64,000 bases of DNA from Nageia nagi (GCA_050084985.1 JBITNC010000001.1:26412001-26476000), one strand, 5' to 3'; counted from the first letter of the stretch, positions 32,801 through 62,253 are shown. Notes: generated from the letters alone by a model not told the origin. Numbers and translations: made by a program.

Positions 32801-35800
32801 AACCTATATAAAATGCCTGCCATTGGCTGGTTCAGCAGCGATTCCTTCCGTTGCGTCTGTTGATTGTGTAGAAGTCGATCCAACAAAAGGTGATTTCGAT
32901 TTGGTGGATGTGAGGTCATTCGATCCAGTGATAAATCCAATGCCACGAGTAGCACTAGTGGCTAGCTACTACCACGAGACCAACCAACGAACAAGCCACT
33001 CTCAAGTGCTCTTTTCAGATATGATGGTTGATTTCAAGAATTATCATTATCAAATATCATAAAAAAAAAGAAAAACAAATAGTGCAATAACATCTTCTAT
33101 CATCATGACAAGATCATCATAAACATCAAAAGAGTAAAAATTTGGAATGCATGTTGAAATAAGAGTTAGTGCCATAATGCACATCGTTTTGGTATCCTGT
33201 TCTAAAATCCCAACATTTTGGTGTTGCAGCCTTGGAGTGTAAATACTTTGATCTTAAGCCTCTATAGCCCTTGCGGTTCACCTAGGTCATTCCAAAATGT
33301 TTGCATATCTGTCCAAGATCATCTAGAGCATAATCATCTTTAACATCATTATCTCGGAATTATTTTTAGGATTATCATCTTCCATGATAATCCAATTCTG
33401 TTATTAGGTTGTAGTTGGGGTTTGCACTCCAATACACAAGTTGTTTGCTAACAAGCTTCCAATCCTCCATCCTTGTAATGTGCCCAATTTGGGACATCTA
33501 GACATCTCCCCTCATACCTATTCTTTGTGATCTCTAGCACTTAGCCTAGGAGTATTTTATTTGTCATTTTATGTACTTCAATAATTCATATTTGTGCCTA
33601 GATGGCATGCACCCAATTAAAGAGCATATTTGGTGTTTATTTGGTAAAGAAAAGGGACCATTTAATATAATAAATCTCCCCTCACCCAGTCAACCAAGGA
33701 AGGAGACTTAATGGACATTAAATAATTATTTATTCATCCTTGATGAGTCGGCCAACTTTAGAGGGCATATTGACAAGATTAGAATGCTATAAATGCAAGG
33801 CATTCAGTCATTTGAAGACATCATCATATTGCATTGATCTTGGATCATTTGAAGTTTAGGGATGCTGCCCTTCTCTACCTTCTAGGGCTTAGGGCTACTC
33901 CTTAGCCTAGAAGTGGCTCATCTACATTTCTACATCTCTTAGAGAGCTTGCGCCTATCATTCTTTCCACTTGGAAGCTTGCGCCAACCATTGGGAGACAT
34001 CTTGAGACTTGTGCCTAGCTTGGGAGCCTTCTTGGGACATGCGCTAGCCTTAAGGAGTCTAGTTTGCAACCATGGTAGACTTGCTATCTCAACTTGTGAA
34101 GAAGGTGGATTCTATTGCACCAACTCCACAAGCACAAAAGGGATAAAAAATTCCATCTAGGGAAACCACACCGTATCAATGGAGTGAAGAATTTGTTTGC
34201 CCTACTCGACCACATCTACCCAAGCCATCCATGCCCATTTTCTGGCAAGAGGAAGCAAGAAACCCTAATGAAGGCCTTGACACCTACTTAAACCAATATC
34301 AAGGTAAAAATGCCGAATTCAAGCAAACAATTACATTTGAAAGTTTTTTTAATATTATGGGGAAGAAGATAGGCAAAGGGATTGATTACTATGACAAGAA
34401 ACACCTACAAAAGATGCAAGTGCCAATGTTTGATGGTAACACTCTGACACCTAAGGCTTGGATACAAAAGCTTCAAACCTTCTTCACCTTTGCCCTATGA
34501 GAGAGATGAATGCAATCAGATTCGCCTCCCTTAACCTTGATGGTATAGCATACGAGTGGAGGCACAATGGGTTCACTACCTTGGGACATGATAAGTTTGT
34601 CATTTTTGAAGAATTTTGCTAAAGAGTTCTTGACAGATTTGAGAGAAAAGATGAGGAAGAATATTTTAGATAGATGACTACACTTCACCAAGTCACTTCC
34701 GTGGGTAGTTATGTTGAAGTTTCCCTTGTCCAGACTACTTTGACCAAAGAGGTCAAGAAGCTTAGCAGATGTTGATTGTTGGTGTAGAGCCTCCCTCCCC
34801 AACTAGCAACCAAACATCCGGACCTAGACCTGGATGCCTTCCTTAGAGTCCTCAGCATGAGTACGACTCATGATGAGGAGATAGATCAGGACCTGCGATT
34901 TGAGGATGAAGAAGAGGAGCTCTCCGATGGTGAGAAGGTCAGAAGGGTTGATACATTTGTCTCCACCTCCCAGAAAGAGATCTCCATCAATAACTGCTAT
35001 TCAAAAGAGAAACATCCTCAGAGACCAGAGGACTGTGTGATTGAGACCAAACACATAGTGACTTACAATGTTGTAGTCATGGAATAGGAAGGCTATGAGC
35101 CAAAAAGGAGGTGGAAATGCTGAAGAAGGAACTCACAGCCAACAGGAAGATTATCAAGGAGTTCCAAACTATCAGTACCACCCCTGTTTATCTAAAGAAA
35201 CAGGCCTCGTTCCATGATGGGTGGAAGCTGATGGAGGAGCAATAGAAGAAGGAAATGATGGAAACTATTGAGAAGCTGTCTTCTCATATATACAGCCTCC
35301 TTGAGGATGGTGTTGAAATCTGGGAATTCAAGTCCCAAATCACAACACACCCTGAGAAGCTGGATGGCAACCTCCCTAACGTCACCCATTTGCAACAGAT
35401 TTTCACTAACAAGTCCGAGAAACTGGTCTATTGCGACGAATTCATGTATCAGCACGACTGGATGAAGCATTCACTTGAGAAGTGCAATGCAGTTTTGAAG
35501 GTAAGAATCCCCTGAGGAAGGAGGTTGAGGAGTAGATGAGAAGATATATGTACCAACTCAGATTCCAGGGAGAAGATAACAATGTGTGGAAAAAGGAGGC
35601 AGTATTGGCAGAGGCTGAGAATTTGATTCAGGAGCATTTAGACATTGATGATCTCAATTTGTGAAGGCAGGGCATTCCATCGTCCATCAGAGACAACTGG
35701 TCATCTGGAGATACTAGATGCAGGTTATGTGTAGACAGATTGGGGACTATTTTTGGCAGAACGACAACATCGTTGGCATGATTTCCAGGGGTGTGCAGAA

Positions 35801-38800
35801 AACCATAGCATTCTTGGAGGATACCATTGAGTTATATGGTCTCACTAGTGAGGAGTGGAACTCCGTCGGTATCGGATCAAATTTGGCCTAGATCTGATCC
35901 ACTCACAATTCTGTCTGCGATAATCTTTCTTTTGTTAAATGCATATTGGTGATGGTGGTTGTTGTTTGTCAGACTTTATTTAGTCTGATCGGTGCAAGGA
36001 AGAGGTTTTGCTCCCGCCGATTTAAATGTCAGACATTTATTGCATTTTTGATTTGCTTTTGCATAGTTTAGAGGTAGATTAAATGCATTTCGGTAGTGGC
36101 ATTTATATTTTGTCAGTTTTTATGTGCCACTTGCATCGTTTTATGTGAACAACCTGCTTTTGTATCGGTATGTGTGTTGCGTGTGTGCACACCATATCGG
36201 ATTTGATGCCTTTAGGACTACACTTCTAATGGCCTATTTATATCCCATCAAGGCCATTTAGAAGTTGATTTTTGCACATTTGAGATCTGCATATAGTAGA
36301 TTTATGCATATTGAGGATTTTTATAATGTTGATTGCATAAAACTATTGTATCTGGTTGGAATTGGGCATATTTGTATAATTGCATAAGGATTTTCTACGT
36401 AAGGGATCCTTTGCATATCATGGTTGTATATTGTTGTACCTCTGTTTCATGTTGAATATCATATTGAGATCATTGCAATCAAGAAAGGAATGCCTCTGTT
36501 CATGTTATAGAATATCATTGTGAGTTTTTTTTTTGTTGGAATAAGGTTATAAAGTAAATATTGTGGAGATTGTCATTTGTGGGATCATGCATGTTACTTT
36601 GGTTTGAATAGTTTTTCCTCTTGAAATTGCATATTGAATATTTGTTGAAGTGGTTTAAGCTGTTCATTGCATGGCTTGCACGTAAGTGAATGTATTCTGG
36701 GGCGTATAGCTTGTCTCGATGTTATTCAGTTAGGCTTGTGTATTTACGCCTTCACTTCATTTACCCCTCGTTCCATTGAGTCTTCCACCAAGACCCTACA
36801 ACTTCGTGCTCTCGTCGTGTAGCGATTTGAGCGCCTATTGCTATTTGTTGCCCAACTTGATAGTGAATACATTTTCCTTAATTTATCTGGAGATGACCTG
36901 CCGAGACACTGCATCACTGGTGATATCTTCATAAGTCTATCATTCTTTATATTTCCGTGCACTTATCCCTGCATTTGTGATCTTTCTTCGCTTTCTTTCA
37001 CAGTTGTAGTCTTTCCTCATTGTGAAAAATGAACTCCGACGATGTATTTCCCTTGTATATGGTTAACAACATGCATCTTTGACCACTGTGCCCTAGATCA
37101 TATTCCATGTGAGCGCTTGGGGTAACCAATCCTTTTAGGAGGAAACAAGTAACGTTGTTTCCTCCAAGTCTTGTGCATGTTTTGGGCGAGGAAAGAAAAA
37201 CATACCAACACAAACCAGTTGAGTTCATTCCTTGAAACCATATAAAATTGTGCTACTTCAATGGGAACATGAACAAACCTTGGGGTTTCAGTCCTTTCAA
37301 GAGTAGGTAAGTTACGCTATCTTGTGCAAGCGATCATAGACCGGTAGGAAGGGTTTCCAACCCAACATGCCCTAGATCGGTTCATGGCATGTTTGGATGT
37401 GTGTTTTGATTTAAATTGATATTTATTTGGTGCTAACATTCCACGTTGAGTGGTTGTGAATTGTTATTGGATTTTTTTTTTACAACATTCCACTATGCTC
37501 TTCTCCAAGCTGGGTTTCCATTCTACTAGAGGCCCAAGAGATGGCGTTGCCATTTTGAAGATAGAAGATGTCAAATATACTCAATGATACCTACAAAATG
37601 CTGCGCCAACCATATAAATAGGAATCCTACACACCCTTTGTAATGTACCTTTCCAGGGTTTATCAAATTTACATTCAATTCCACACTTACATGAATTAGG
37701 GCATTAATAAAAATGCTCGATAAACAACCAAACATGCATTCAAAGTGGAATATAACAGCAGTAGCTAAATGCTCATAGAATATGCGATTATGACCAAACT
37801 AGGGCACAAATAGATCTGTAACATACAAAAATATAGCTCCAAATGTACTCAATTTGCATACATTCCCATGCACAAAGAAGACAAACACATAGCAGAGATA
37901 TATAGGAACATTCATTCACATTCGAGATGCAATATGAGAGCCAATATCATCAATAATCAACCAAGAATATGTGTAGGACTGTATCAAGTTCTTAGGGGCA
38001 AAGCCCAAGACTCGAAAATGCTCAAACTAGATTTCTCAAGGATGGCACAAGTCCCAAGGCAGCTCCCAAGCTTGATGCAAGTCTCAAGATGGCTCCTAAT
38101 GGCTGGCGCAAGCTTCCAAATGGCAAGATAGATAGGCACAAGCTCTCCAAGAGGTGTAGAAGTGTAGAGAAGGGAAGCATCCCTAAGCTCCAAATGATCC
38201 AATATTGAATGCACAAGATGATGTCTTCATATGACCAAATGCCTTGTATTTATAGCATTCCAAACTTGTCAATATGCCCCTAAAAGGCAGCTGATTGGCA
38301 AAGGAGGAATAAGTAATTATTAAATGGCCCCAAACCTCCCTAACATGGCCAACTTGAGAAATGGGGCATAATTCATCTTATTGGCACCTTTTGTTAGCTT
38401 AAATAAACATATAATTTGCCGTTTTCGAGTGCTTACCTTATTGGGACAAATATAGATATAATAAATACATAAATTTACATCACCACAATGAATAAGCATG
38501 AGGGGAGACATTTATTATATCTTAGTGGTTAGATCACAATGAATAAGCATGAGGGGAGACATTTAGATGTCCAATATTGGGGACATTACACCCTCCAAGG
38601 TGATGTCATGCTTGGGTGCTTGGATTGTACCTCGGGATCACACCAAATCATGCGCCTAACCTCTAAACATGCGTTGTGCCTAGGGATCCACATTATGACA
38701 CTTAAATGCTCTAAGATACACTTAGAAGGGAGATGTCCCACTAGGGGCTCATAATTGGTCCATGGGACCCATATGTCTCCTATCCTAAGTTACATTGATG

Positions 38801-41800
38801 CCTAAGTACATATGCAATAAATAAATAATCACTCCTACTTACAAATGTACTCCTAAAGGGGACATCCCATGAAGAGATGTTACAACCCCCCCTTCAAAGT
38901 GACTAAATTTAAATGTTAATGGATCACACGAATAGGATGCTCAAAATGTAGACATTACAAATCTTTTATTGTGGATTCCTTTAATCTCGATTATGAGGTG
39001 ATGGTGGGCCTTTTGTCAAGTATTGACCACTTAGTGGGTGATGCAAATATTCATTCAAAGTTACAATCCAAACTGCAATCATATAAGAAGCACGAGGGTC
39101 TCCTTCTTAGATCCCCATAGTGCATTAAAGAAAGGGCAACCTTGAGGCTAGCTAACCCTCATAGAATGAGTATTACTATTTGTTTTGTATTTTGATTTTG
39201 TTTGAAAAAAGTAATCTCAATTTAAACTTTTACATGTGAAGTTGAACTTGAAGTATTGATCGTGTTTTTTCTTGTTTCTTTCTCTAGATTTATGATGGGA
39301 GCACTTTGGTGCATACATGTCCAACTTCCAACATTTTGCCATAAGAATTTTATGCCAACCATGTAGCGCTTCAGGTTGTGAGCGCAAATGGAGTGTTTTT
39401 TTAACGCATACATGTTGGTATGTTTTTCTTTCCTAGTCCAAAACATGCACAAGACTTGGAGGAAACAATGTTACTTGTTTCCGCTTGAATGGATTGGTTA
39501 CCCCAAGCACTCACATGGAATATGGTCTTTAAGGCTCAGTAGTCAAAGATGCATGCTGTTAACCGTATACAAGGGAAATTCAATACCGAAATTCCTTTCC
39601 CCAATAAGGAAAGACTACAAATGTGAATGAAAGCGAAGAAAGATCACAAATGCAAGGACAAAACATATGGATAAATGCAAAGGAATACGAGGAGAAGAAA
39701 TGGTTTATGAAGGTATCACCAGTGATGCAATGTCTCGATGGAAAGGGTATAAGTGAGGTGAGGGTGTGAGCAGAGGGACCTAATCGAATGATATAAAGAC
39801 AAGCTATAGGCCTCAAAATACAACCACTTTGCAAACCATGCAAAGAAAAACTTCAAACTACTTTAATGAATATTCAATATGAAACTCCAAAGGGAAGAAA
39901 GTTGTTCAAATATGCATGATCTCACAAATGATATCCTTCATAATATAAACTTTATAATCTCATTCCTCAAAATAAACACATTCATAATGATATTCAACAA
40001 TGAACATGCATAGAACCCCTTATGCAGCGAACCTCTATGCAATGGAATGTAAATACTAAAGGATGCAATAGCTCAAAATTCTTACATACATAAAAAGCTT
40101 ATAGCTAGCATCTCTAAATGGAGGAAACTCAATATGCAATATTCCCATTAAGTGCAGAGTCTCATGTGCAACAATGCGTAAAATCATGCAATAGTCCAAG
40201 TGCAAAATTGTAGACATCCTCCAATGCAAATATCCAAATGCCAAAGATCCAATGCAACAATCCCTAGTGTCAAAGTCCCCTTCTAGATGGCCCGAATGAT
40301 GTATAAATAGGCTACTAGAAGTGCTGCTCTAAAGGCATCAAATCTGATATGGTGTGCACACAGGCAACACACATACCGATACAAAATCAGATTGTTCACA
40401 CAAAACTATGCAAGTAGCACTTAAAAGTTGACAAAATATAAATGCCACCATCAAAATGCATCTAATCTACCTCTAAGCTATGCAACAATGAATCAGATAT
40501 GCAGTAAAAAGTCTGACAAGACTGACATCTAAATCGGCAGGAGCAAAACCTCATCCCTGCACCGATCAGAGCCATAAGTGAGTCTGAAGGATTTGATCTG
40601 GTGGTAGCAAAACCTCATCCCTACACTAGTCAAATCGAATGAAATGAAGTCTAACATAACAACCATCATTAAACATGCATTAAACAAATGAATAGATACC
40701 GCAGACAAAATATACGGATGGATCAGACCTAGGCTAGATCTGATCCAATACTGGTGGAGTTCCACTCCTCGTTGGTGAGATCGTGTTGGGAAGGAAACCT
40801 TTCCTCTTACTTGGTGATCGCCCATACGATCAAGACGGGAAAGCGACCCAACATGTAGGTGAGAACGCATTACTGAACTCCTCTTGTAAGGATTGATACC
40901 CCAAGGTTTCTATCGGAAAGCTCTTATTGTTAATACAAGCTTTAAATTTGTAGGTCTTGTATGGGAATTAGCTGAGTGGTGTAATAGAGGTAATAACTAT
41001 TAACTCATATTTTTTGTAGGGACTGAGTTGTGTTATCTTACAATAGTTTGAAAGTTGCCATAAGTTTAAAAAAAGTGTAAAATAAAGAAAAGAAAAGGTG
41101 AGAATGAGGTCGAAAACTGGCTAGACTTCAAAGAGGTAATCACAATGCAACATTGTCTAAATGTTCTTTCTCTTGAATCGGTTAAGAAACCTTGTTCAAT
41201 TCAATCAAGTCCTTGAAATGAATCACTATTGTCTAATCATTCCAAAGATAAGCGAGAAGCGGAATTGATTGTCGGTACTTTATGAATAGGACCGATGCAA
41301 CCAAGTGGACTAAACGTGAGTGAAGGTGGATAGTTTTGAACAAAAGATCTAGGAAGATGTCTTAAGAGAAAGTCAATTCAGAATACTAAGCATTTAACAA
41401 GCAAGTGATGAATTACAAAAATTGTCCTTAAAAGATCAATCCACCACTCCCATAGATGAAAACACACTTTGAATCAACTTGTACCCATTTGTATTATGTT
41501 TGCAAAAGAGTTTTGCACAAGTACATCAATTTGCTCCTCAATTGCAAAAATTTTCAATTTTGGAAAAAAATTGGAAATTTCTTGGACTACAACATTCTGC
41601 CTCAAAATGTGATCCTCTATGGTCTATTTATAGTCTTTTTAGGTCAAAATTTGAAGGTGTTACCCTAATTTGTAGAAAACCTTTAATATGCTAATTTGAA
41701 TGCTAAATTGAGATTACAATATCATTTTAGGGGGAGAATAGTCATATGCCACTAAAATATGATAAAAATAAAATATTTACAAAAATTGATGCCCTTTGGC

Positions 41801-44800
41801 ATGCATTTGGAGGCGTTTTGCATCAATTTGTCAAAAATTTGAGCTTCAAATTCTTGTTCTAGATCCTTCTGATAGTCTTTTGAGCTCCTTCCTTATTTGA
41901 ATTTGGATTTGCCTGTGATGTGATCATTGTGGCAAATTTTCAAGGGGTGTTGAGAGAATTTTTCGAAAAAGTGGATTTTTTTGTCTATTTTTCGAAAAAG
42001 ATAGTGGGGGTCCGAAAGTTGGAAATTTTTCAAAAAGTGGATTTGAGCTTATGGATGGATGGAGGATGGGATTATAAGGTCTTTGGCAAGTTGTGAGAGG
42101 TTTTGGAGCTTTTAGGAGGATTTGTGAAGGATTTGGGATTTTGACAAATTTTTCCATTTTCATGTCTATGGAATTCATTTGGTAGAAAAAAGTGAAATTT
42201 CCATAGGAATGAAAAATGTATCCAAGATTTTTGAGCCCTTTAACTTGCTCAAATTCAAAAATTTCAAAGTTTAAAGTTGCTTAGAATTCCATTTTCCATG
42301 CAATGAAGGTAAAATTTTTGATTTTTGAGCAAAATTTGATGTTCCTCCTCAAGTTAGGTGCTAGTTTTCACTTGTATGGATTTGGAAAAATTAGAAAAGC
42401 TGCACCTAGCTTTTTGGTGCCTTATATGTGCTCAAAATAAAAAATTTGTAGGTTTAAATGTGCTTGGAATGTCTTTCTCCATGCAAGGAAAGGGTCCAAC
42501 TTGATTTTTTGGGTGAATTTGCCCTTATCTCTCCAATTTAGGTGCTAGTTTTCAGCCCTATGGATCTTCAATGACATGAAAACCTGCACCTAGATATTTG
42601 TGCCCCCAAACTTGCTCAAAAATGAAAATTTGCAAGTTTAAATGTGTAGAATGGGGTCTTTTATCCATTTATGCCTTCAAATCTGGTTTTTGATCAAACA
42701 TCCATCTTCCTCCTTGAATTAGGCGTCAAAAAACACTTCATTGAGATTCCATTAGCATGAATACATGTGTCTATGCTTTTTGGGCATTTCCCTTGTTCAA
42801 AAGTGAAATTTTGTAGACCTAAACCTTCTTGAAATGCCCTTTTCCTTGCTTACAAACCTTCAAACTGGAATTTTGGACAAAATTTATCTTTTTTCCTCAT
42901 GCTAGGTGCCAAAATTCATCCCATTGGATTTCTATAGCTTTGCAAACTTGCGCCTAGCCTTTAGGGTGCTTAAAAGTGCTCAAAATTGATTTTTCCATGA
43001 CCTAAATGTGTTCAAAATGCCAAATTTCACTTAATTCCTCAAACTTGATTTTTGACCAAAATTTGTCAAATTTTTCACTTTAGGCGCCATTTTTCACCCC
43101 ATTGGATTTGGAAAAACTTGAAAACCTGTGCCTGTACTTTAAATGCTCAAAAGTTGATAAATTTGCCTTTTTCAAGACCTAAATGTGCTCGAAATCACTT
43201 TCTTTTTGTCCCCAAGCACTTAAACTTGATTTTTTGCAAAATTTATCTTTTTCTTTCATTCTAGGTGCCAAAAATCACTCCAGTGGATTTCCATACAGTT
43301 GGAAACATGTGCCATGCTTTTTGGGCCTCAAAACTTGATCAAATTTGAAAAATTGAAGATTTGAATGTGCTTGAAATCCCTTTTTCCATCAATTTTTTCT
43401 TTGGGTTTGGTATTTTGGTCAAAATCCATTTTTCTCCTTCAAGTTAGGCACCAAAATGCAAGTCTATGGATTTCCAATCACTTGGAAACTTGCGCCTAGG
43501 ATTTTAGGGTACTTCCATTGGTCAAAATCAAAAATTTGTAGACCTAAAGTGCCTTAGAAAGAGATTTTACATGCAATCAAATCATCTCCCTTGATTTTTG
43601 AGACAATTTCCATTTTTCCCTTGGTAGTTATGTGCCAAAATACATCTCAATGGATTTCCATTGGCTTGAAAAACTGCACCTAGGCTTGGAGGGCTTAAAA
43701 CTTGGTCAAAATTGAAAATTTCAAGTCCTAATTGTGTTAGAAATAACCTTATCTCTTCATTGATGCTTTTAGACTTGATTTTCGACACCATTTGCATTTG
43801 TCTCTTGAAAGTTTTTCATATTTTACCATTCTGGGAGCTATGTGTCAAAACCGGGGCTCTGATATCACTAAAGTCCTCAAACTGTGCTCTTAGGCACACC
43901 TTGTGTGTTCTCGACCCATATCTGCCATTTCGGAGCTTGAGCTTGACCAAATCCACATTTTTCGTCGTTTTCGGGCTCAAATTGGGCATTTTCGATCATT
44001 CTCGGCATTTCCGAGCTCAAACTCTAAAAAGGGTCATTTCTGGCAGTAACGGTCAAAACTGAGCTTAATATCTGAAAAACGTTCATTTTCGGCATTCTCG
44101 GCACTTTAGAGCTCAAACCTTACATTTCCGGCCATTTCAGTCAAAATCGAACATTTATATGCATTCCCAACCAAAATTGCACTTTTTGAACATTTCTGAG
44201 CATTATGGGCTCAACTTTACATTTTTGACCATTTTCAAGCTTTTCGGTTCCAAAATGTGCAAAAACGCACATGCTTGCCTTGTTGACCACTTCCGGGCTC
44301 AAAATTGGCAAAAACACACATTTTGTATCATACTTGCCCTTTTCGGCTTTTTCGGGGTCAAAATTGACAAAAACGCTTATTTTTGTCATCTTAGCCATAT
44401 TTACTGCACCCGGACTCAAACTTGATGTAATGACCCTATTTTTAAGAATATCTTGCATTTGGGATTTTCCACAAATCTTTTCTCTTACAAGTCAGATATG
44501 GTTGTTGCACCTTCAGAATTGGATAGAGCATCTCATGGCATTTGTTTTAAGTGGTCACATGACCCCTTTTGGACAAGAAATGAAGGAGTTATGGCTACTT
44601 GAAGTTCGCCAGTCGGACCAGTCTTCCATATCGCACCTACACACGAAAATCCACTTAGTGGATTTTTACTTAAAAGTGCAATGTTGAATTATAATAAACT
44701 TTTATGTTATTCTAATATTATTTTAAGTACTTTTATTTGTAATAAGGCCAATCAATGGCTTAGATTAGCTTAGAGGGGTCAATGCAAGATTAGGGTTGGA

Positions 44801-47800
44801 GTCTATATAAGTAGATGCAACACTCCATTTTGGGTATGTTATGTGATATGAGAATTGAATATTGAAAACCTAGAGTTTCCATGAGTTGAGATTGCAGGTC
44901 TTGCTCATTCCCATAGTGCATTGGAGGTGCATGGTTGGGGACTTGGCAATATCATTGAAGGTGTTATTGCCCTAAAATATCAAAAATACAAAAGAGGCAT
45001 CTGTGAATGGTTCGTGGCACTTCTTTTGTGGAGGGATTCACTCAATTTGGGAAGTTTGTATCTGCATTTTTAGTTCCGTGAGGATTCCATTTGTCCATTC
45101 CAGCTTTGTATTGGTTTGGAAATATTTAATATATGATACTGGCTGATTTCTCCTCATACTAGTGTTATTTTATGAGCAATTTCTGAGTTATTTTATAGCT
45201 GCAATTTATTTCTGAATTTTTATGTTGAGGGTTTGCTAGAAATAAAGAAATAAAAATAAAAGGAACATCACACTTGACAAAAACACTCGTTTTTGTCATC
45301 TGGGCACCTTTGTGCTTTAATCCTTCAAAAATGCACCTTTTTGTCACCCTTGGCATTTGTGAGCTCAAACCTTGCAAAACAGACCCCATGTGCATTGACT
45401 GCACTCTAGACCCAAAAATCCGTGCTCTGATGTTGTCTCTCAGATCCTGGCTCTGTGGCTCCAAAACTGGTGACTGGATACTCTGATACTCTTCATGGTC
45501 TTCGTTGCAAGATCTCCTTGAATCGCTCCTTGATATCATGTTTGCACTCTTCAAAATGAACTATCCGTCCCCAAAAGCCTATCTCAAGGCAATGCACCTC
45601 ATTGCCTTTGCAAAAATAGGGTTCCCAAATCTTGTATTTTGGGGTGTGTTGTGTGGGCACAACAAACCGTATGACTCAATGGTCTCCTCCAAGAACACCA
45701 CATTCTTCCGCACACCCTTGGAAATCATGCCATTGGTGCTAGTATTCTACCAGAAATAATCTGATATCTTCTTTGACGTAGCCTTCATTTGATGTCTCTA
45801 GATGAGCATTCGCCTCTCATGGACGATGGGATTCCTTAACTTCAGCAAGCTAAGGTCATCGATATCAAGATGTTCTTGCAACAGATTCGGAGCCTCTGCC
45901 AATACCGCCGCTTTCTTTCTTACATTGTTGTCCTCCCCATGGAACTTGAGCTGATAGACATTCGTTCATTTACTCCTTTCTCAAGGTGATTCTGATCTTT
46001 AGGGTTGCATTGCACTTTTCAAGCACGTGGTTCAACTAATCATGATGATAGCTGAACTTAGGGCAGTAGACCAACTTTTCAAGATTGTCAGCATAAATAT
46101 GCTGTAGATGGGAGACGTTGGGTAGATGAGTATTCATAGTGCCAAGGTGTGGTGAAATTTGTGCCTTGAGATCCCTTATTTCTACACCTTCGGCAAGGAG
46201 CTTGTAAATTCGAGAAGACATTCTATCGATAGCTTCCATCATTTCTTTCTTCAGCTGCTCGTTCATTATTTCCCATCCTTCATGGAAGGAAGTCTGCTTC
46301 TACAAGTCTAAGGGGGTAGTGCTGACCTTTTAGAAGTCCTTGATGATTTTCCTGCTAACCGTGAGTTCTCTTTTCAATCTCATCACCTCCTTGGCTTCGT
46401 AGCCATCCTGCTCCATAATTGCAACATTCTGAGTGACTATGTGTTTCCGTACTATCAATCCTAGCTTCACAGGCATCTTGAATGTCTCAATGACGCAGTC
46501 CCGTGCTCTCTGAGGGTGTTTCTCCTTTGAATTGTAATGGCTGATGGAGATCTCTTTCCGAGAAGTGGAAACAAAGGTGTCAACTCATCTAATCTTCTCA
46601 CCATCCGAAAAACTCTTTTTCTTCATCTTCAGAGCATAGGTCTTGGTCTATGTATTCGTCATGAGCCATGCTCATGCTTAGGGACCTAAGGCAGGCATCT
46701 AGGTAAAGATCCATATGCTCAGTTGCTAGTTAAGGAGGAAATCTTTGAACCAACAGCTGTCTTTTGTCGATCTTCTTGACCTCTTTCGTTGGAGTGGTTT
46801 GGACGATTGTGACCTCCTTACCTTGGTGCTCTTCCTGTCTCCTCTTCTTCTTCTGTTCCTCAGTCTCTCCTTTATCTTCCTCATCTCCTCCATCACTGCC
46901 TATAGATATGCCTTTGTTCTGTGGCTAGGGAGATCTTTCATGGCTTGTCCTCTTTGTGGAGGACTTGTGTGAAGTGGAAGGGGACTTCTTCCTATGCTCG
47001 ATAGGAGAGGGTTTGAAGGCACCTACTTTTTTGGCACATTTTACTCCAATGATCTAGATGTCATCATCATACTTTCCAACGTCTAATATCTCATTGTCAT
47101 CTGCGAGAGTCTCAATCTTCGTCTCATCGGGTGCAGAAACACCCATAGCTACGTCCTCTTGTCCAGGAATACGGTAGCACCATCATTATCATCATCTTTT
47201 TCTTCTTCTCGTTCGCCATGGCTCTCCGATTCTTCCTCGGAATCATCCACTGTACGACTAGGCTCTTCATTAGAAGAAGAAGTGGAACGTTCAGAACTAG
47301 AACTAGAACTTGGTTGTAAAGGGGGGACTTTCTCCCTGCATCCAGGAGAATGAGTAAGTTTGGAAGGGACTGCCTTGGTGGATGAATCACTAGCACAAGC
47401 CTCACCCATTGCATCATCTAACACATCCGAATTGAGAGTGTGATAACCAGTGTCCTTTGAGATCAGAAACTAGTACGTTGCGCTTGCTAGGGTCCATGAT
47501 GAGTTCCCTTGGAGCCTCTTGTTGGTTCCCAATGGGGAGCAATAGTTTCTTGCCTGGTAGAGATGTAGTACGAGTGGGAGAAGGAGATGTCTTGATCCGA
47601 AGAAGGACCTCCTTTGATCTGGGCTTTGTAGTTCAGGGTCTCTTAGGTGGCTTCTCTGCTTGGAGCAGAGTCTTTTTCTTGCTCAGAAGAGCATCTATTC
47701 ATGAAATCTCCTCCTCATCTTGCAAGTTCCTATACCTCTCCTCATTCCCCAAAGACTTATGCGGAAATGCAATAGGTTTGTGGAATGCAATGTCATAGAA

Positions 47801-50800
47801 ACAAGCAATTACACCCTTGGGATCATAGTTTCTTGCAACCACCTTCTTGGAAAAGGCATATTGCTGCAGCTCCTTCATGTTGTCTACCTCCACCCATGTC
47901 TGGCATACATACTTCGATATTGAGATAGGCGAATTGATGGTCGCATTCTTCTTCTTCCAGACTTTCTCCTTTAAGAACAAAAGCTGACTAGCAAACTCCA
48001 TGAGGATCGACTTGTCACTAGCGTATCTTTGCAGGAGAAGGGGTCGTTCTTTTGAGCCATAGACTTTGATGTATGTATGGTCAGCGTCTTGCAGAAAAAA
48101 ATCCGCATGTATGCTGATAGCTTGGATAGCCGCATCAGAAATCCCCTTCATCGTTGACTCCCCTTTGATGTCTTTGTAGATGTCATACTCCTAGTGATCA
48201 GTCCTCTCACAGAAATGTTGGAACATGTTCTGATACCACCATTTAGGATAGGCTCACCACACGGAGGTGTTCTTCTGCCCCAGATATCTTTCATCCGCCT
48301 ATTCTTTGGATCTGATCTTGCCATGGAGCAACAAGTACAAAAGATAAGAATTCATATAGAATCTCTTCGATGAGCTGAAATAGGCTAGCTGGTGGAGCAA
48401 GGCATCACTGATTACCCCAGCCCATCGGATAACTCTCCCTGAGCTGATAACTGCAATGAATCCTGTGAACTCCCTCCTGTAGTTCTTGTCGTTCTCGACC
48501 AGTGACCCTTGACAAGAGAGTGATTAACTTGGCCACAACAGGCAGGAACTCCTCTCTACGTGCGCTGATCAATCCCTGACCTTGAAGATTTTTGTAATCT
48601 TCCAGTAACCAGGGTCGAATGTAGTACCTAGGCCGGGCTATGGAATCATGGAATTCTTCAGAATGTGCCAATGAGTAATTGTCCCCATATCTTCTCTAGT
48701 CGAAGGCTGCTTCAATTCTAGTAGGGAAGAAGTCCATGATTATGTTTCCGTTTGTGTCCCGTAGGACCCTTTTATGATAATCACACTTCCTAGCTACCTC
48801 ATGACATAGGTCAAGAAAAGGTACTACAAATGGCATCATTGTGGCGTTGAACAAGCCACATGTATGGATGAGTTTTGATGATAAGTCCTCTTTGCTGATG
48901 GAGGTTGTGGAGGCTAAAGTTTGGACAAGATCTAAGTTCCCCCAATCTGTATCACCAACAAAGATGTATCGCCCCTTAAATTTGGCTTTAGGGAGCTCTG
49001 GTCTCTCTCTCTCCTGAAATTCAATCAAGCTTTCTCTCAAAAGTCGGGTCATCTGGCTTTGGGTCACATGTCTCTCGAATAGCTGGCTTTGAACCTTCCT
49101 GGCCCTTAATGGAGGTGGCTTGATACTAGAAGCCATGCAAGAATGTCTGAAAACCTTCAAGAAAACCCTAAAGACAAATCTGGACGTTGTGAAAGATGCA
49201 GCTAGGCAGAGTTAGATGTGCAGATTTGGGCTGTAGAAAGTCCAACACACCGGATGATGGTTGCTTCCCTTTTTATATGAAATGCATGGAGGGTGAATGC
49301 ATGGCGAGGCACATGCTTTCCACTTGTCTTCTTCTCCTCGCAACTCTTGGCATCTCACAGTTGACCAATTTCACCTTGCAATCTTGGGCGCACAGTTTGA
49401 GTTGGGTGCAAAAGCACAACTTGAAAAGCATGCGACTGGGCCTAGGGTTACTTAGTCAAATTTCGGAGCATAATTCTTCACCTCAATCCTAGGCGCATGG
49501 ATCTGGATGAGTGCTTGAGCACAACTTGAAAAGCATGCAACTAGGCTTAGGGAATGCATTGGAATGCCTTAGCCCAAAAATGGCTAATTGGATGCACGTC
49601 CCCTAAAACACCTTATTTCTCCTTGGCGTATTGTTTTGGATGAGTGCAAAAGCATGCATTAGAAATGGTGCGACTGGGGAAAGGGTGGCAAATCTCAAAT
49701 GAAGTGATTAAAATGACTAAGAGGTGGGGTGATATTTATAACATTCAAAACTACCACGTGTCACCTCTGGATTGATCAAACTGGGGGTCAAATGACGGAC
49801 AAAGAGCAGGGGTGCATGGTTTTAAAGGAGTGAAAAAGCATGTGATGAAAAGCATGAGACTAAGCTTTTAGATACTTAGCCAATTTTGAAGTTGACGTTG
49901 AAGTCCAATTCCTGGTCGCACTGTTTTGAAAGGGTGCTTTAGCATTCATCTTAATCCTTGCGCCAAGGGGTCTGGCACGCTTCCCAAAACTAGAAATTCA
50001 AAAGTAACTTGAAAAATGTAATTTTAATACAGGTCGCATATTTTGGAGGGGCTGCTTTCTCTCCCTTGATCCGACGCAATGCTCCAAACAAGTTTGCAAA
50101 CTGAAATACTAAGGGTGACTTCCCTTTTATAGCCTTCCGGGTAGGACAGGTGTCTCCACATGATAGGTGTGAGAGGGGGTCCAATGTATGAGTCGCCACT
50201 TGTCAACGAACTAGACCCAACACTTAGCCAATTTTACTTTCATGAATCTGGTTGCACAGTTTGAGTTGGGTACAAAAGCACTCACTTGAAAGCATGCGAC
50301 TAGCTTTGGTTGCCCCAAAAATGGCTAAGTCCTTTTCTTCCTGGTCGCATGGATTGAGTAGGGTGAAAAAGGACTTGTCCGAAAACATGCGACAGGCTTT
50401 TGTGACCCAAAAAAATGACTAAGTATGAAACTTCTTCCTTGGTCGCACCATTTTAGGTGAGTGCAAAATTACTTGCCCAAAAACATGTGACAGGTTTCCA
50501 TGGCCCCAAAAGAGACTAAGTATAAGATTTCTTTCTTGGTTGCACCGTTTTAGGTGAGTGCAAAAAGATACACCTGAAAACATGCGATAGGTTTCCCCAC
50601 ACAAAAAAAATGCCACGTATGAGAGGTTCAACCTTGGTCGCACCATTTTGGGTGAGTGCAAAAGCACTCACCTGAAAACATGTGACAGGCTGAAAACACG
50701 ATTTTTCCTTGCATTTTGACCAAAATAACACCAGATATGAAATGCAATGAGGAAGACGAATTTCTGCAGCATGGAGAACCTTCAAAAGTGCAATTCTACG

Positions 50801-52057
50801 ACATGAAATGCAAGTGATAAGGATGAAAACGCAGCAAGGGGCTGGTCGCATAGTTTGAAAGGAGTGAAAAAGCACTTACTGAAAAACATGCGACAGGCTG
50901 AATAATGCACAATTATGACCTGACTTTGTTCTGAAAGAGCAATTTAAACATGTTTCTTGAAGCTAGACCACAATGTATGCATTCCCTTTGACAAATTACT
51001 TCCATGCATTTCCTTTTCTATTTTGAGGGTCCTCAAAATGCAAAATTTTAGGGGGGTGTTGTGCAGGCACAACAATACACTCCAAGAAAAGGAACAAACT
51101 CATTAAGAAAAACTTGAATGATCTTGTGTTTGTTAATTACAACCTTTGCCCCACCATAGACAAATAGCAAGTTTAAATAATGAGGCTGTTGATTTAGATC
51201 ATATTGATCCATCATCGAAATGCTTCACATATCACATGTAAGAGTAGCATCAAGAAGTTCCTTGCTTCCCCATGGAAACATTTGAAAATATAGTAGGGGA
51301 GTTAGCAGCAAATGCACACGAAGATGCCTGGACGTCAGAAAATCACATAAATCCTCATCATAGAGGGAGACAAGAGCATATTCTAGGGCATAGGGCAAAG
51401 GAGTTGCCAAACATTGAGGTATTGTATTTGTCATGAGTTACGAGTCATAACACATTTTATAATTTGTAATTTTAAACTTTTTTTACATTATAACTTATAA
51501 GTAATACAAAAATTTGCGTGTTCCTCTTCATGATATTTTTATGAGTACATTGTTAATTTTACGTCTATAATGGTGAATGTTGAGTAACTGTGTTAAAAGA
51601 AGATACTCCTATGCATGTAAAATCTTTTGTTTTCGATGAAAAATTGCGTTTATTTTTCAATTTTTTTTTTGCTGAATCTTTCCAAATATGTTTTTCAATA
51701 TTTTGCTGAGTATGAGCCAGTTCCTCTTTTCTCAACTTTGTAATTAGTATTTTGCTCTAAACTTTATATCGTTTGTTATATATTCAAATGAGTTGAATGC
51801 AAGAGTCTGTTCTCTGATGCTTATAATCCATTATTCCTATATCTATTCTAGAAGACGCAACAATGGACGAGTTTTTCATTGAATGGTAGTTTGTTAAAAA
51901 TGGCTTCTTGTCTTTTTAGTTACAATGCTTTAAGGAATTTATAAAAAAAGATCTATATTTTACTTTGATCAATTGACAATAATTCATTGGATTCTTATGT
52001 CAGGTATTGTTTTCAACAGAGACATTTGCTATGGGAGTTAATGCTCCTGCAAAAACT
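11781..52057 (+). CDS. SKI2: SKI2-like DExH-box RNA helicase (exosome cofactor), partial multi-exon gene; 9 internal exons in window, gene extends beyond both window edges
   Basis: Spliced exons 11781-11888, 20965-21064, 21394-21594, 21694-21804, 24940-25007, 31326-31701, 31972-32127, 32264-32374 and 52004-52057 are all bounded by AG/GT. They give [18 protein letters not shown] (Walker A)..[81 protein letters not shown], typical of plant SKI2. One frame break in the second exon. Confidence 0.95.
12611..13350 (-). mobile_element. Truncated LTR fragment (family E-like)
   Basis: Starts TGTAATGTACCCTTC, similar to the end of the solo LTR at 37639; right boundary approximate. Confidence 0.5.
14034..15296 (+). 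mobile_element. Solo LTR, family C (1,263 bp)
   Basis: TGTAACA...TTTTACA; TSD GTAGT/ATAGT; TATA-like CTATAAAAGG at 14641; about 30-bp CCACGTTGG repeats at 14350-14590. Confidence 0.8.
17056..18271 (-). mobile_element. Solo LTR, C/D-related (1,216 bp)
   Basis: TGTGATG...CGTCACA; perfect TSD TGATC; 30-bp CCAACGTGGGGTC repeats at 17808-18005. Confidence 0.85.
18760..19215. repeat. Tandem repeat, 3 units of about 171 bp, inside A3
   Basis: TTTGCATG..GTTACATAACAAAGCTCCAAAATGTGC..GAGGAGCAATTTTGAT units start near 18765, 18937 and 19108; a fourth degenerate unit lies near 19290. Confidence 0.85.
19850..20045 (+). pseudogene. Ty1/Copia integrase C-terminal relic
   Basis: Translates with frameshifts to [33 protein letters not shown], the typical Copia post-integrase motif. 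Confidence 0.55.
20965..21064 (+). CDS. SKI2: SKI2 exon with Walker A ([29 protein letters not shown]); 100 nt, frameshifted as assembled
   Basis: ttgcag|GCA acceptor and AAA|gtatgt donor; the conserved peptide is in a different frame from the acceptor. Confidence 0.9.
21394..21594 (+). CDS. SKI2: SKI2 exon ([13 protein letters not shown]...DIIRDIEW)
   Basis: ttcag|CAC and TGG|gtgagt; 201 nt; motifs Ia/Ib. Confidence 0.95.
21694..21804 (+). CDS. SKI2: SKI2 exon ([15 protein letters not shown]...LLSAT)
   Basis: tacag|GTC and ACG|gtaaat; 111 nt; DEVH motif II and SAT motif III. Confidence 0.95.
22497..23090 (-). mobile_element. LTR fragment, family F
   Basis: TGTGATG start; 22835-23090 matches 37510-37630 plus 38595-38710. 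Confidence 0.55.
23090..23789 (+). mobile_element. 3' end fragment of another LTR
   Basis: Ends GGAAAAAAATGCAGCCAACA, similar in style to the A/B distal ends; left boundary approximate. Confidence 0.4.
23815..24570. mobile_element. hAT-type MITE (756 bp)
   Basis: TIR CATAGTTGTAAAAAT / ATTTTTACAACTTTG (14/15); 8-bp TSD GACATTAT/TACATTAT; no coding capacity. Confidence 0.8.
24940..25007 (+). CDS. SKI2: SKI2 exon ([23 protein letters not shown])
   Basis: tttag|GTG and GG|gtatgt; 68 nt, ends in phase 2. Confidence 0.93.
26340..27200 (+). pseudogene. Highly decayed Ty3/Gypsy gag relic (interrupted at about 26420-26870)
   Basis: Fragments [19 protein letters not shown] and [37 protein letters not shown] resemble Gypsy gag. 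Confidence 0.55.
27417..29902 (+). mobile_element. hAT DNA transposon, internally deleted (2,486 bp)
   Basis: 11-bp TIR CAGTGTTCCAC/GTGGAACACTG; perfect 8-bp TSD GTATTTAC; subterminal GTTCCC/GGGAAC arrays at both ends. Confidence 0.97.
28132..29618 (+). pseudogene. hAT transposase (BED finger plus DUF659-type region), frameshifted and C-terminally truncated
   Basis: [16 protein letters not shown] finger, [29 protein letters not shown] and TRYAT motifs; intron 29073-29199; 1-nt frameshift near 28872; downstream exons including the dimerization domain are missing. Confidence 0.92.
31326..31701 (+). CDS. SKI2: SKI2 exon ([13 protein letters not shown]...[10 protein letters not shown])
   Basis: atcag|A ACA and CCT|gtatgt; 376 nt, starts in phase 2, matching the previous exon. 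Confidence 0.93.
31972..32127 (+). CDS. SKI2: SKI2 exon ([12 protein letters not shown]...SDRQLPQ)
   Basis: tctag|GCG and CAG|gtaatt; 156 nt; motif IV. Confidence 0.94.
32264..32374 (+). CDS. SKI2: SKI2 exon ([18 protein letters not shown]...RGVIK)
   Basis: tgcag|GTG and AAG|gttgtt; 111 nt. Confidence 0.94.
33474..34066 (+). mobile_element. 5' part of a family E LTR
   Basis: TGTAATGTGCCCAATTTGGGACATC is the reverse complement of the 38590 end; TATA CTATAAATG near 33787. Confidence 0.7.
34072..34720 (+). pseudogene. Ty3/Gypsy gag fragment
   Basis: [54 protein letters not shown], a Retrotrans_gag-like pattern with stops and a frameshift. Confidence 0.8.
34721..37210 (+). mobile_element. Family B fragment B0 (3' part of ORF plus distal end)
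   Basis: Matches 59875-62250; peptide [24 protein letters not shown]; ends GAAAAACATACCAACA. Confidence 0.85.
37211..37367 (+). mobile_element. Distal end of a family A-related LTR
   Basis: AAACCTTGGGGT..GCGATCA..GGAAGGGTTTCCAACCCAACA resembles the reverse complement of 40784-40910. Confidence 0.55.
37490..38896 (-). mobile_element. Family F 3' LTR remnant with adjacent polypurine tract; carries a nested solo LTR
   Basis: Minus strand reads TTTGAAGGGGGGGT then TGTAACATC (LTR start at 38884); homologous to 22835-23090. Confidence 0.6.
37639..38590 (-). mobile_element. Solo LTR, family E (952 bp)
   Basis: TGTAATG...CATTACA; TSD CCCTT/CCCTC. Confidence 0.8.
40784..45664 (-). mobile_element. 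Family A copy A4, complete but ORF-less (about 4.0 kb after removing nested solo LTR)
   Basis: TGTTGGGAAGG...TGTTGTGTGGGCACAACA; flanks GATCG and AACCG each differ by one transition from GACCG, the empty-site sequence in the uninterrupted B copy near 60841. Confidence 0.88.
44426..45272 (+). mobile_element. Solo LTR (847 bp) nested in A4
   Basis: TGTAATG...CATCACA; perfect TSD CTTGA; TATA CTATATAAG near 44803. Confidence 0.9.
49380..50900. repeat. Array of about 98 bp imperfect inverted-repeat units in family B
   Basis: GGTCGCA...TGCGAC pairs, for example at 50250, 50343, 50441, 50538 and 50636; related arrays at 55700-57260 and 63130-63760. Confidence 0.7.
52004..52057 (+). CDS. SKI2: SKI2 exon ([18 protein letters not shown])
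   Basis: gtcag|GTA and ACT|gtgagt; 54 nt; motif V; follows a 19.6 kb intron. Confidence 0.93.
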
Positions 52058-55501: not shown

Positions 55502-55518
55502 CCAGGAGACTTGGAACA

Positions 55519-58500
55519 TGTTGTGCCTGCACAACACCCCCCAAAAATTTGCATTTTTGAGGACCGTCATTGTATTGAAATGTTAAGGCATGAAAGCATT
55601 TTTCTAAGTAAATGCATGCATTGTAGACCAAAGGAGGGTAGACATGGCAAATTAGCATCTTCATGTTGAAACAAGTCAAAATTTTACCATTTTGCCCATG
55701 TCGCATGTTTTGAGGGACATGCTTTTGCATGTACCATGAAACTTGCACCCTTCTTCATGTTGCAATGTTTTGGGTCAAGTCTTGCATTTTTGGGTTTAAG
55801 CTACATCATTCATGCCCATTTTTACTTAGTCATTCCATGAAATAGCATCCCCTCCATTGCATCCCATTATCGAGGGTCATTCTGGTCATTTTGAAGTAAA
55901 TCAACATGTTTTGTGCCTGAGCACATGGTTCGAGGGACATGCTTTTTCATGTACCCAGATCGATGCGCCTTGGTGAAGGAGGTACTTTGACACTTAGCAG
56001 ATTTCAGAGGAAAATTGTCAAAACAGCCTGAGCACATGTTTTGAGGGACATGCTTTTGCATGTACCAAAACGGTGCGCCTTGTCGAAAAAAGCATTCTCA
56101 ACACTTAGTCAATTTTTTGAATAATTGGTGAAATTGGCCTAGTGCATGGTTTGAGGGACATGCTTTTGCATGTACCTAAATCGATGTGCTCTCCTTCAGG
56201 TGCGAAATTTTGGCGAAGTGGGATTTTTGACGTTCACTATGAAGAAGACTGGTGTGTTCACATGCATTGGACCTTCACTCATGCCAATCGTTGCATGACA
56301 CCTGTATGCCTGAGCAAGTCTATAAAAGGAAGGTCAGCTTCAGCATTTAGTTTGTTTGGTTGATTTCGTAGCATTGTGTTGTTCTAAGTTCAGAAAAGCA
56401 CATCCCTAAACGGTGCACCCTATTCCGGACAGTGATTTTCAACGTAATTTTCATTAAATATTAATTTGTTGCATAGGAAAGTGTGCCACGGGATTGTGCA
56501 CATGGTTTTTGGGGCATTCTTAGGCATTCATCTAGATCAGTGCGCTGGTTTCCAAATGTTTTGTCCCAAGGGTATTTATTTTTGACTAAGTATATAATCT
56601 TGTGAAGGGCCTAGGCGCCTGTTTTCTGGTACATGCTTTTCCACTCATCTAAAAAGGTGCGCCTAAAATTCTAGAGTATTGTGGAATTAAGTATTTTGAG
56701 GTGCTTGCTCTGGTAGGAGCAATGATTGTAGGACATTGTTTTGCACCCCTCCAAAAGGGTGCGACCAAGTTGCAAGGGTTTTCAAGTGTAATGAAATTTG
56801 ACTAAGACCTTTTAATGCACTAAAGTTGGCTTGCGCATGTATTTCGGGACATGCTTTTGCATGTACTCTAAAACATGTGCCCACCATCCTAGCTTCGTCA
56901 TTTGACCCCATTTTGAACCAAGTAAGAGGTGACACGTGCAAAATTGAAGGTTATATATATGAAGTCACCGCTTTATCATTTTACCACTTCATTTCATTTT
57001 GGGCTAAATTTCCTAGTCGCTCCATTTCCAGAACATGCTTAAGGACTCATCTAAATTGGTGCGCCTAGGAGAAATAAGGAATTGAGAAAGTGTCTGTGCT
57101 GCCAAAAGCCATTTTTAAGAGGTGCTTCAAGGACTTATCCGAAATGGTGCACCCAGGTCTAGATCCAAGAAATTGGCGAAGTATACATGATTATCAGGAG
57201 ACTAGTTGCATGTTTTTCAGGCAGTGAAAAAGCACGTACCCAAATCCGTGCACCCTAGGGACCGTGAGCTGAAATTGTCTAAGTATTGAGAAAAGCCAAG
57301 AGTTGAAAGAATGAGAAGATAGATGGCATACATGCAGTGTGCCATGCGTAAACCCTCCATGCAACTTCTATAAGAGGGCAATCCCAGTTCATTTATGCAG
57401 GACTTTTTTACAGCTTGAACTTGGACGTTTGGCCATTTTTCTGCATTTTTTAGGACACATCCAATTTGGTGTTTGTCCATTCTTGGAGCATTCCCAACTA
57501 GAATTTCAGCTTCTTTTTGTAGTTTTCTGCATATTTTTTTTATTTGAGATGATTTCTAAGGTGAGGCCTCCTCCATCCAAGACCAGAAAGATTCAAGGGC
57601 AACTTTTTGAAAGATATGTCACGGATGACCAGATGGAGATGATTTTGAGGGAAAGTAAGATAGAATTGCAAGAAAGTGAAAAACCAGAACTCCTTGAAGC
57701 CAAATTCAAGGGGAGATTCGTTTTTCATTGGTGATATAGATTGGGAAAATGTTGACCCCATCTAGACTATAACATCCATTGCCTCCATCAGCAAGGAGGA
57801 TCTGTCGGATAAAATCATCCATTCTTGTGGGCTATTCAATGCGACTATGATGCCTTTTGCTGCTTCATATCCTAATTTGTGTTAAGAAGTTTCCAAATTG
57901 TGTAAGCATGACAAAAGAGTTCTCTTGGAGACCAAAGGGAACGTGATCATGGATTTCTCTTTGAAAGGGATCGAAGCTGCCTTTGGTTGGAGAAGATATG
58001 GAGATAATTATACATTGGCCCATTCAGAAGAATTCCATGATTCCACTACTCAATCGGGAGATTATATGAGAAGATGGTTGTGTGAAGATTACCATGGCAT
58101 CCAGGGCCAGAAATTGATTAGTGCTCGTTGTCTAGAGTCATAGGTTAGGAAAATGACTCCAAATACAGGAAAGAGTTCACTGGGTTTATTACCATGATCG
58201 GCTCAGGGAGAGCTATCCGATGGAGCAGGGTAATCAGTGATGCTTTGCGCCACCAACTGGCCTACTTTGGCTCTTCTAGAAGGTTCTATATGAACTCTTA
58301 TCTTGTGCACCTGTTGTTGCATGGTAAGCTCAGGTTAAGGGAGCTTGCAGATGAAAGATATCTAGACAAGAAAGGCATCTCGGTGTAGCAAATCTATCCG
58401 AAGTGGTTGTACCGTAACAAATTCAGGCATTTCTATGAGAGAAACGACCAGTGGGAGTATGCTATTTATAAGGAAATCAAGGGAAAGTCAGTAGTCAAGA

Positions 58501-61500: not shown

Positions 61501-62253
61501 GAGTATTGCAATCAAGAAAGGAATGCTTTTGTTTGTGCTATTGAATATCATTGTGAGTTTATTTCTTTCTGGAATGGTTCTATAAAGTAAATGCTGTCAA
61601 GTTTATCATTTGTGGTATCATGCATCTTATCCTATAAGATTCTCTTGCTAGTTTTAATAGTTTTTACTGCTTAAGTGCATTCTCTTTGAAAATTGCGAGT
61701 TTTAAGAGAAGATAATTGGATATCTTTTGAAGTATATTAAGCTGTTCATTGTATGATTTGCATGTAAGTAGATGTATTCTGGGGCGTATAGCTTATCTCT
61801 CTATCATTCAGTTAGAATTTATGTATTCACATGTTGTTCATTTCCCTTCATCCCATTGCATTGAGTCTTCCATCATAGACCCTATAGCTTCTTGTTCCTG
61901 TTTGGTAGTAACTTGAGTCTTTTGCTATTTGCTGCCCAGCTTGATAAGTGAATACGTTTTCTTAAAGAATCCAGAGATGACCTACCAAGACACTGCATCA
62001 CTGGTGATATCATCATAAGTTTATTATCCATATTCCTATGCATTTATCCTTGCATTTGTGATCCTTTTTCGCTTTCGTTCACATTTGCAGTCTTTCCTCT
62101 TTGTGGAAACGAATTTCGATGGTGAATTTTCCTTGTATACGGTTAATAACATGCATCTCTATCCATTGTGCCCTAGTGCATATTCCATGTGAGCGCTTGG
62201 GGTAACCATTCCTTTCAGGAGTAAATAAGTAACGTTGTTTCCTCCGAGTCCTG
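55519..62253 (+). mobile_element. Family B element B2 (about 6.7 kb; last ~40 bp deleted)
   Basis: Starts TGTTGTGCCTGCACAACA; collinear with the reverse complement of B1; stops at CCTCCGAGTCCTG just before the normal end. Confidence 0.88.
57549..60895 (+). pseudogene. Family B accessory ORF in B2 (stops, frameshifts, small deletions)
   Basis: MISKVRPPP..AIRWSRVISDALRHQL..FYMNSYLVHLLLHG..acidic linker..[33 protein letters not shown]. Confidence 0.8.

Follow-up and report, generated by a model that had tools for sequence, protein, structure and literature searches.

The locus analysed here raises the question of what kind of mobile unit ends in TG..CA, is enclosed by a 5-bp TSD and carries a single long gene. 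The initial annotation of the window, the 64,000-nucleotide stretch of DNA under study, had offered two answers for the unit B1. Either it is an LTR of 7-8 kb with an embedded gene, so that every solo LTR leaves a full transcription unit behind, or it belongs to a self-contained class of elements mobilised in trans.

Boundaries and anatomy of B1 and its relatives

Inspection of the ends bore out the TG..CA termini and the perfect TSD reported for B1: on the plus strand TG stands at 39413 and CA at 51074, and ATACA is found on both sides (Table 1). The element is oriented on the minus strand, from 51074 to 39413. Its size of about 6.8 kb after subtraction of nested DNA was also confirmed, as 6,776 bp are left without 40784-45664. 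We compared the first 1,500 bp with the last 1,371 bp of B1 and detected no direct or inverted repeat above chance. The best local score was 25, a value equalled or exceeded by 29 of 60 shuffles; the positive control, the B1 end against the B3 end, scored 363. Short terminal direct repeats, which the initial annotation had named as one finding that would speak against its proposal, are thus absent from B1, whose score is at chance level. A LARD- or TRIM-type non-autonomous LTR element is out, as B1 is without two terminal direct repeats. The statement that B1 has no internal direct repeats was correct for the termini but not for the interior, where a 98-bp tandem array (50379-50691) and dispersed repeat copies are present.

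Table 1. Positions of the features described in the window
Feature	Position	Strand	Remarks
B1, solo-LTR-like unit	39413..51074	minus	6,776 bp net of nested element
TSD of B1, left	39408..39412		ATACA; ends inspected
TSD of B1, right	51075..51079		ATACA; ends inspected
Terminal palindrome at B1 start	51057..51074	minus	18 bp, TGTTGTG..CACAACA hairpin, then C run
U3-like upstream region of B1	49137..51056	minus	1.9 kb, repeat-rich
B1 ORF, main part	45670..49136	minus	ATG at 49136; decayed
B1 ORF, last 18 codons and stop	40729..40783	minus	cut off by nested element C
B1 downstream region	39413..40728	minus	inferred promoter/R/U5; terminus ends CCAACA, conserved
Element C, nested in B1	40784..45664	minus	4,881 bp, TG..CA unit
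B2, second copy	55519..62254	plus	67-82% identical to B1 in aligned blocks
B2 ORF	about 57549-60895	plus
B3, 3' part of B copy	34728..37210	plus	ORF C-terminal region to intact terminus
B4, 3' terminus of B copy	62546..62953	minus	split by B5
B5, start of B copy	62954..64000	plus	continues past window edge
A1, related family	1..7529	minus	3' end left of window; >7.5 kb
A1 ORF, single frame	4091-690	minus	1,133 codons, 8 internal stops
A2	7530..11097	minus	start and repeat region of A copy plus its first 155 codons; A1 inserted in it
A3, start of A/C-like copy	19658..19749	minus	other end not found
Host intron	approx. 32375..52003	plus	~19.6 kb; contains B3 and B1; helicase motifs: 32306, 52016

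None of the 132 stop-to-stop frames of at least 42 aa between 39300 and 51200 matched Pfam at E<=0.001. This agrees with the claim that B1 contains no recognisable gag, RT or integrase, and it is a weak negative because the same scan missed a putative gag remnant at 34147-34674. Net of element C, a single decayed ORF of about 1,170 codons is present in B1. Its product comprises an N-terminal folded domain, a low-complexity linker and a helical C-terminal region. The gene of about 1,100 codons that had been announced therefore measures about 1,170 codons in B1 and 1,133 in A1, decayed in both, and a long decayed ORF was found in B2 and in family A (A1) as well, as claimed. The ORF is sense-oriented in B1, with upstream TATA and family-specific repeat arrays preceding it and a second TATA and the terminus following it. 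Three TATA-like boxes lie upstream, near 50131, 49740 and 49277; another is found after the ORF, near 40309, with 0.9 kb on to the terminus. From this arrangement we infer that B1 and A1 are laid out as LTRs whose U3-like region contains the ORF, and the labels U3, R and U5 are used here in that inferred sense.

The palindrome at the start of B1 occurs seven times in the window, versus 0.31 copies expected, and folds as a 7-bp stem (7512-7529, 11080-11097, 19732-19749, 45647-45664, 51057-51074, 55519-55536 and 62954-62971). Every copy of families A, B and C begins at it, giving seven starts in different flanks. The stem is conserved and the loop variable, and both integrase-type end motifs, TGTTG and CAACA, lie within the hairpin. 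Three of the seven starts mark insertions into a further member of the group (A1 into A2, C into B1 and B5 into B4), which makes a self-insertion preference of these elements possible. About 36 bp of the 3' end of B2 are missing, and B2 has no intact TSD. The upstream region of A1 spans 3.4 kb with repeats of about 182 bp, and a TATA box is located about 94 bp past the stop of its ORF.

Element C interrupts the 3' end of the B1 ORF. Two lines of evidence identify it as an insertion: B2 runs continuous across the corresponding position, and joints in the public DNA run X1 skip 4,886-4,888 bp at 40779-40781/45666-45669. Like B1, it starts with the palindrome. It carries A-type repeats of about 182 bp and a TATA box about 850 bp before its end, its 5-bp TSD is degenerate (GATCG/AACCG), and no ORF match was seen in it. 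The depth of run X1 per bin was about 220-2,100 over C versus 100-270 over the B body. This ORF-less 4.9-kb relative with A-type arrays is a candidate non-autonomous parasite of family A.

B1 and B3 lie in an intron of a host gene, presumably a SKI2-like helicase, with exons across approximately 21400-52060 and repeat-filled introns; the frame at 21256 gave a DEAD match (E 0.0097). A hAT-type transposase remnant (28114-29622, DUF659 E 1.4e-17) is also found in a host intron, accompanied by a GC-rich subterminal region near 27300-27750. A repeat of about 600 bp is present in two inverted copies (33474-34720 and 38023-38590), the first followed by a decayed gag-like frame from 34147 to about 34720, recognised by eye and without a Pfam match. 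We rejected this gag-like remnant as a part of family B because the border between it and B3 is a deletion junction and the repeat preceding it is a different one. A 172-bp tandem array with 2.5 copies at 90% match (18764-19219) lies near the A3 start, and a further repeat family is seen at 14034-14950, 53506-55518 and 62261-62545, with B2 inserted into one copy.

The encoded protein and its putative role

The profile-free search returned 143 relatives of the ORF protein at E<=0.001. Of 20 proteins looked up, three carry a species name, the species being Taxus chinensis (a cluster of 7) and Ginkgo biloba. Two relatives without stops, 758 and 838 aa long, show 82% and 81% identity with A1, and the A and B proteins share about 25-47% identity, depending on the region. 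Differences between B1 and B2 were about twice as frequent at third codon positions (127/284) as at first and second positions (57/283 and 64/282). Between B2 and B3 the excess was three- to fivefold (62/145 versus 22/145 and 12/145), and between A1 and A2 the contrast was weak (29/154 versus 21/154 and 16/154). These are signs that the ORF was under purifying selection in the past, while the family diversified.

No Pfam PMD or DUF1985 match was obtained for the protein family, including among 69 aligned members, and neither the PDB sequence search nor the ESM Atlas yielded a usable match. We then turned to the predicted structure. AlphaFold2 modelled an N-terminal domain of 406 residues with a pLDDT of 83 and a pTM of 0.78, the rest of the protein being a disordered linker and long helices. 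Among 48,161 solved chains, the sole match to the N-terminal model at Z>=5 was VANC21 bound to DNA (9lnk), with a Z of 6.4, a value under 8 that, as the tool warns, can reflect a common arrangement (rmsd 4.5, 233 residues aligned, 9% identity). The match covers most of the domain and stands well apart from the next-best chain (Z 3.4, 72 residues). A longer model gave the same top match (VANC21, Z 6.1), which is not independent because both models share their sequences. Foldseek returned no match at E<=0.001 against PDB and BFVD. A resemblance between the DUF1985 domain of VANC proteins and the plant mobile domain has been reported (bioRxiv 2024.09.27.615353, PMC13547354); the latter is borne by Gypsy elements as an extra ORF, and its host versions can act in silencing too (PMC5418596). 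On the strength of the model, the N-terminal domain is somewhat more probably than not of a PMD/VANC-like fold.

The short motifs to which VANC proteins bind lie in tandem repeats and vary among related families, and the proteins cause methylation loss (PMC5735166). Tandem arrays are common in large LTR elements (PMC6317226), and the upstream regions of the present families contain such arrays. The motif RTGYGAC occurs 13 times upstream of the ORF in B1, 6 times in the part of B5 that is seen and not at all in A1 and A2, whereas GYRCCTA is found 16 times in A1, 9 times in A2, 13 times in C and once in B1. B2 is mixed, with 2 B-type and 4 A-type copies. This enrichment shows that arrays exist, not that they are bound, because the motifs were picked from these same sequences. 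By analogy with VANC proteins, we tentatively propose that the U3 protein may bind the motif arrays of its own LTR and relieve silencing or activate transcription.

Within the same architecture the protein could also have a different role, such as integration targeting, chromatin tethering, RNA handling or coiled-coil particle assembly. The fold match is weak, long helical and low-complexity regions make up part of the protein, and the accessible text on Gypsy-encoded PMDs demonstrates no function for them (bioRxiv 2024.09.27.615353, PMC5418596), all of which would suit such a role. Nevertheless, the one structural match that stands out is to an anti-silencing factor with sequence specificity, which targets family-specific tandem arrays, and arrays of this kind lie directly upstream of the ORF. 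We consider a different role a serious alternative whose chances fall a little short of even.

The idea that every solo LTR leaves a full transcription unit behind is anatomically plausible, given the TATA-like boxes on both sides of the ORF. It is countered by the state of the copies in the window, where all three complete ORFs are broken and the similar unit C has no ORF match. A bolder reading, by analogy with the VANC system, is that a VANC-like, sequence-specific anti-silencing gene and its target arrays moved into a gymnosperm LTR, making each solo LTR a self-contained cassette. We find this unlikely. If true, such a cassette would survive the loss of gag-pol, it could act in trans on full-length elements and on ORF-less relatives like C, and protein and motif would diverge family by family.

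Termini and the solo-LTR question

Contigs of run X1 were aligned to 100 bp across the B1 terminus, yielding 57 contigs, 26 of which aligned only in part. The depth was about 2,000 at the terminus and 0 over the window's own flank at that end. Among the contigs listed, 6 pass from the terminus into one consensus with a PBS-like motif (agreement 0.73), and 15 leave it into mixed flanks (agreement 0.42). The motif starts with TGG, is 17 nt long and lies about 11 nt past the final CA, in the orientation of the element. The motif presumably complements the 3' end of plant tRNA-Asn. Downstream of a 5' LTR one expects just such a complement of a tRNA end, in this position and orientation. Because other copies of the B terminus continue into this PBS-like motif, the first option of the initial annotation, LTRs of 7-8 kb with an embedded gene, gains support, and the second, a class mobilised in trans, is weakened.

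The gap of about 11 nt, if real, would imply that more bases than usual are trimmed from the cDNA end; the REXdb criterion places the PBS 0-5 nt from the LTR end (PMC6317226). In the literature, the letters of the motif were met only in miRNA tables, and no paper linking it to a named tRNA was found. Its complement is part of a CCA-ended small RNA in a table for curry leaf (PMC8747174), and in a Moringa table the motif itself bears the name miR3711 (PMC4773123). This annotated microRNA, whose name derives from Picea abies, corresponds to the PBS-like motif or its CCA-ended complement, and it may be a tRNA fragment or a PBS-derived RNA rather than a true microRNA.

A solo LTR is the simplest reading of B1 because B1 has only one terminus and all of its 6.8 kb lie within the TSD. 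We consider it very likely that B1 is an LTR with an embedded gene. The full explanation that we regard as best is likely, though less so: B1 would be a solo LTR, about 6.8 kb long, of a gymnosperm-type retrotransposon, probably of the OTA group, with a U3 gene for a predicted DNA-binding protein of PMD/VANC fold. According to this explanation, a full element of 20 kb or more would integrate, and recombination between its two long LTRs would leave one LTR copy within the original TSD. Transcription of an accessory mRNA would be driven by the upstream TATA, and that of the genomic RNA by the downstream one. During reverse transcription the accessory gene would be copied along with the U3 of the 3' LTR, as in retroviral U3 genes. 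The replication machinery is most likely ordinary.

Alternatively, the true LTR might be the last 1.3-1.5 kb only, in which case the ORF would be one of the usual extra ORFs in the 3' part of the internal region, and B1 would have arisen by deletion or recombination. It is indeed common for an extra ORF to lie between pol and the 3' LTR (PMC6317226, PMC7264820), and a review places extra ORFs in the internal region, mostly at that position (PMC7264820). The depth of run X1, about 1,800 at the B1 terminus versus about 100-270 over the ORF and start, indicates that the terminus is common to far more elements than the body is; this contrast is poorly quantitative and also fits a conserved R/U5 with a variable U3. 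Against a short LTR, the TSD surrounds the entire unit, no PPT or TG junction is found inside it, and the terminus is not repeated at the start. Moreover, B1, B2, B5 and the A copies share the TG-palindrome start in unrelated flanks, which random deletions would not produce. A short LTR is therefore improbable. A mini-LTR of 18 bp, with the plus-strand G run before 51057 as PPT, was rejected because the ORF, the TATA boxes and the PBS define the minus strand and no such repeat is found at the other end.

Less probable still is a self-contained mobile element with LTR-derived ends, moved in trans without PBS, PPT or paired LTRs of its own, for instance one-LTR DNA integrated by a partner's integrase. 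Single-locus boundaries are all bare, which would fit: in the window, a PPT precedes 0 of 7 starts and a PBS follows 0 of 4 intact ends, and no PPT precedes the A-type start in the metagenome loci L002 and L003, which represent one insertion seen twice. The conserved 18-bp start hairpin, bearing both TGTTG and CAACA, and the excess of mixed-flank over PBS-type contigs (15 versus 6 among those listed) point the same way, but 15 to 6 is no copy ratio, because unique flanks give one contig each and internal regions collapse. The same terminus exists in PBS-adjacent copies, and we know of no replication route for an RNA without primer sites. Families with long LTRs are also often rich in solos, as rice Retrosat2 is, with 429 solo and 162 complete copies (PMC3485330).

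Pattern and protein scans of viral contigs, prokaryote genomes and metagenomes gave no useful internal region linked to the family, and neither there nor in the window did two of these LTRs flank gag-pol. In the metagenome scan (3 loci), L001 was a chance match; among the viral contigs, L004 was one too, on a phage contig.

Lineage and comparison with known systems

The lineage of B1 is likely to be the OTA group of Ty3/gypsy (Athila or TatII), an assignment based on the PBS that we assume to match tRNA-Asn and on the Taxus and Ginkgo protein relatives, which point to a gymnosperm host. In the REXdb summary table, a tRNA-Asn PBS is listed for 12% of Athila, 15% of TatII and 4% of Retand elements and for no other lineage, and TatII and TatIII are described as gymnosperm clades (PMC6317226).

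Hosts are considered to disarm and shrink retrotransposons by solo-LTR formation; when the LTR bears a gene, coding capacity is retained afterwards, and solo LTRs with such genes may be more than inert scars. LTRs of 7-8 kb are beyond the usual length limits of LTR-finding programs. Given these limits and a length above the approximately 5 kb of the REXdb survey, such families may go undetected or be wrongly annotated in the giant genomes of gymnosperms. Their ORFs are then listed as 'hypothetical proteins', examples being those of Taxus and Ginkgo. If true, the VANC-like reading would give a testable function to the extra ORFs of retrotransposons, a long-open question, and would extend sequence-specific anti-silencing from dicot DNA transposons to retrotransposons.

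Accessory genes in U3 are familiar from retroviruses, with sag of MMTV, nef of HIV and SIV and bel of foamy viruses. As in B1, these ORFs lie in or overlap U3 and are retained in solo LTRs. Retroviral LTRs with such genes measure about 0.6-1.8 kb and their ORFs about 200-350 codons. The likeness to the B1 ORF is one of position.

VANC21 of VANDAL21 is the best structural match and likewise the product of an accessory transposon gene, with short motifs in arrays that differ between families (PMC5735166). The likeness rests on the predicted fold, the two proteins having no sequence similarity. VANC genes belong to Mutator-like DNA transposons and are described as dicot-specific (PMC13547354), whereas the gene described here belongs to a gymnosperm-type LTR; the 5-bp TSD, the TG..CA ends, the PBS link and the lack of a transposase match speak against a VANDAL/MuDR DNA transposon as its carrier. 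PMD-A of Gypsy and the related MAIN/MAIL1 provide a case of a Gypsy-borne accessory domain that is reported to be structurally like the DUF1985 of VANC (PMC5418596, bioRxiv 2024.09.27.615353). They differ in that the protein described here has no Pfam PMD match, and in that the surveys concern angiosperms and, in their accessible text, describe no LTR-internal position.

The literature on plant retrotransposons, as far as its full text is open and leaving Repbase, the REXdb per-element table and subscription papers outside its scope, yielded no family with a long ORF inside the LTR. The initial annotation had named an earlier description of such a family as the second finding that would speak against it, and none emerged from the accessible parts of these sources. 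The rice elements Retrosat2, RIRE3 and RIRE8 resemble B1 in having LTRs of more than 3 kb that start TGT..CACCC, many solos and an extra ORF of unknown function; they differ in that this ORF0 lies upstream of gag-pol, in the internal region, and in that the LTRs are half the size (PMC3485330). The closest overall likeness is to the OTA elements (Athila, TatII, TatIII, Ogre and Retand), which share the 5-bp TSD, large size, extra ORFs, tandem arrays and large LTRs, with a tRNA-Asn PBS in Athila, TatII and Retand (PMC6317226). In the accessible text of the same source, their extra ORFs are grouped by a position 5' or 3' of the polyprotein, none being placed inside the LTR, and the LTRs of OTA and other non-chromoviruses reach about 5 kb, compared with 6.8 kb in family B and more than 7.5 kb in family A.
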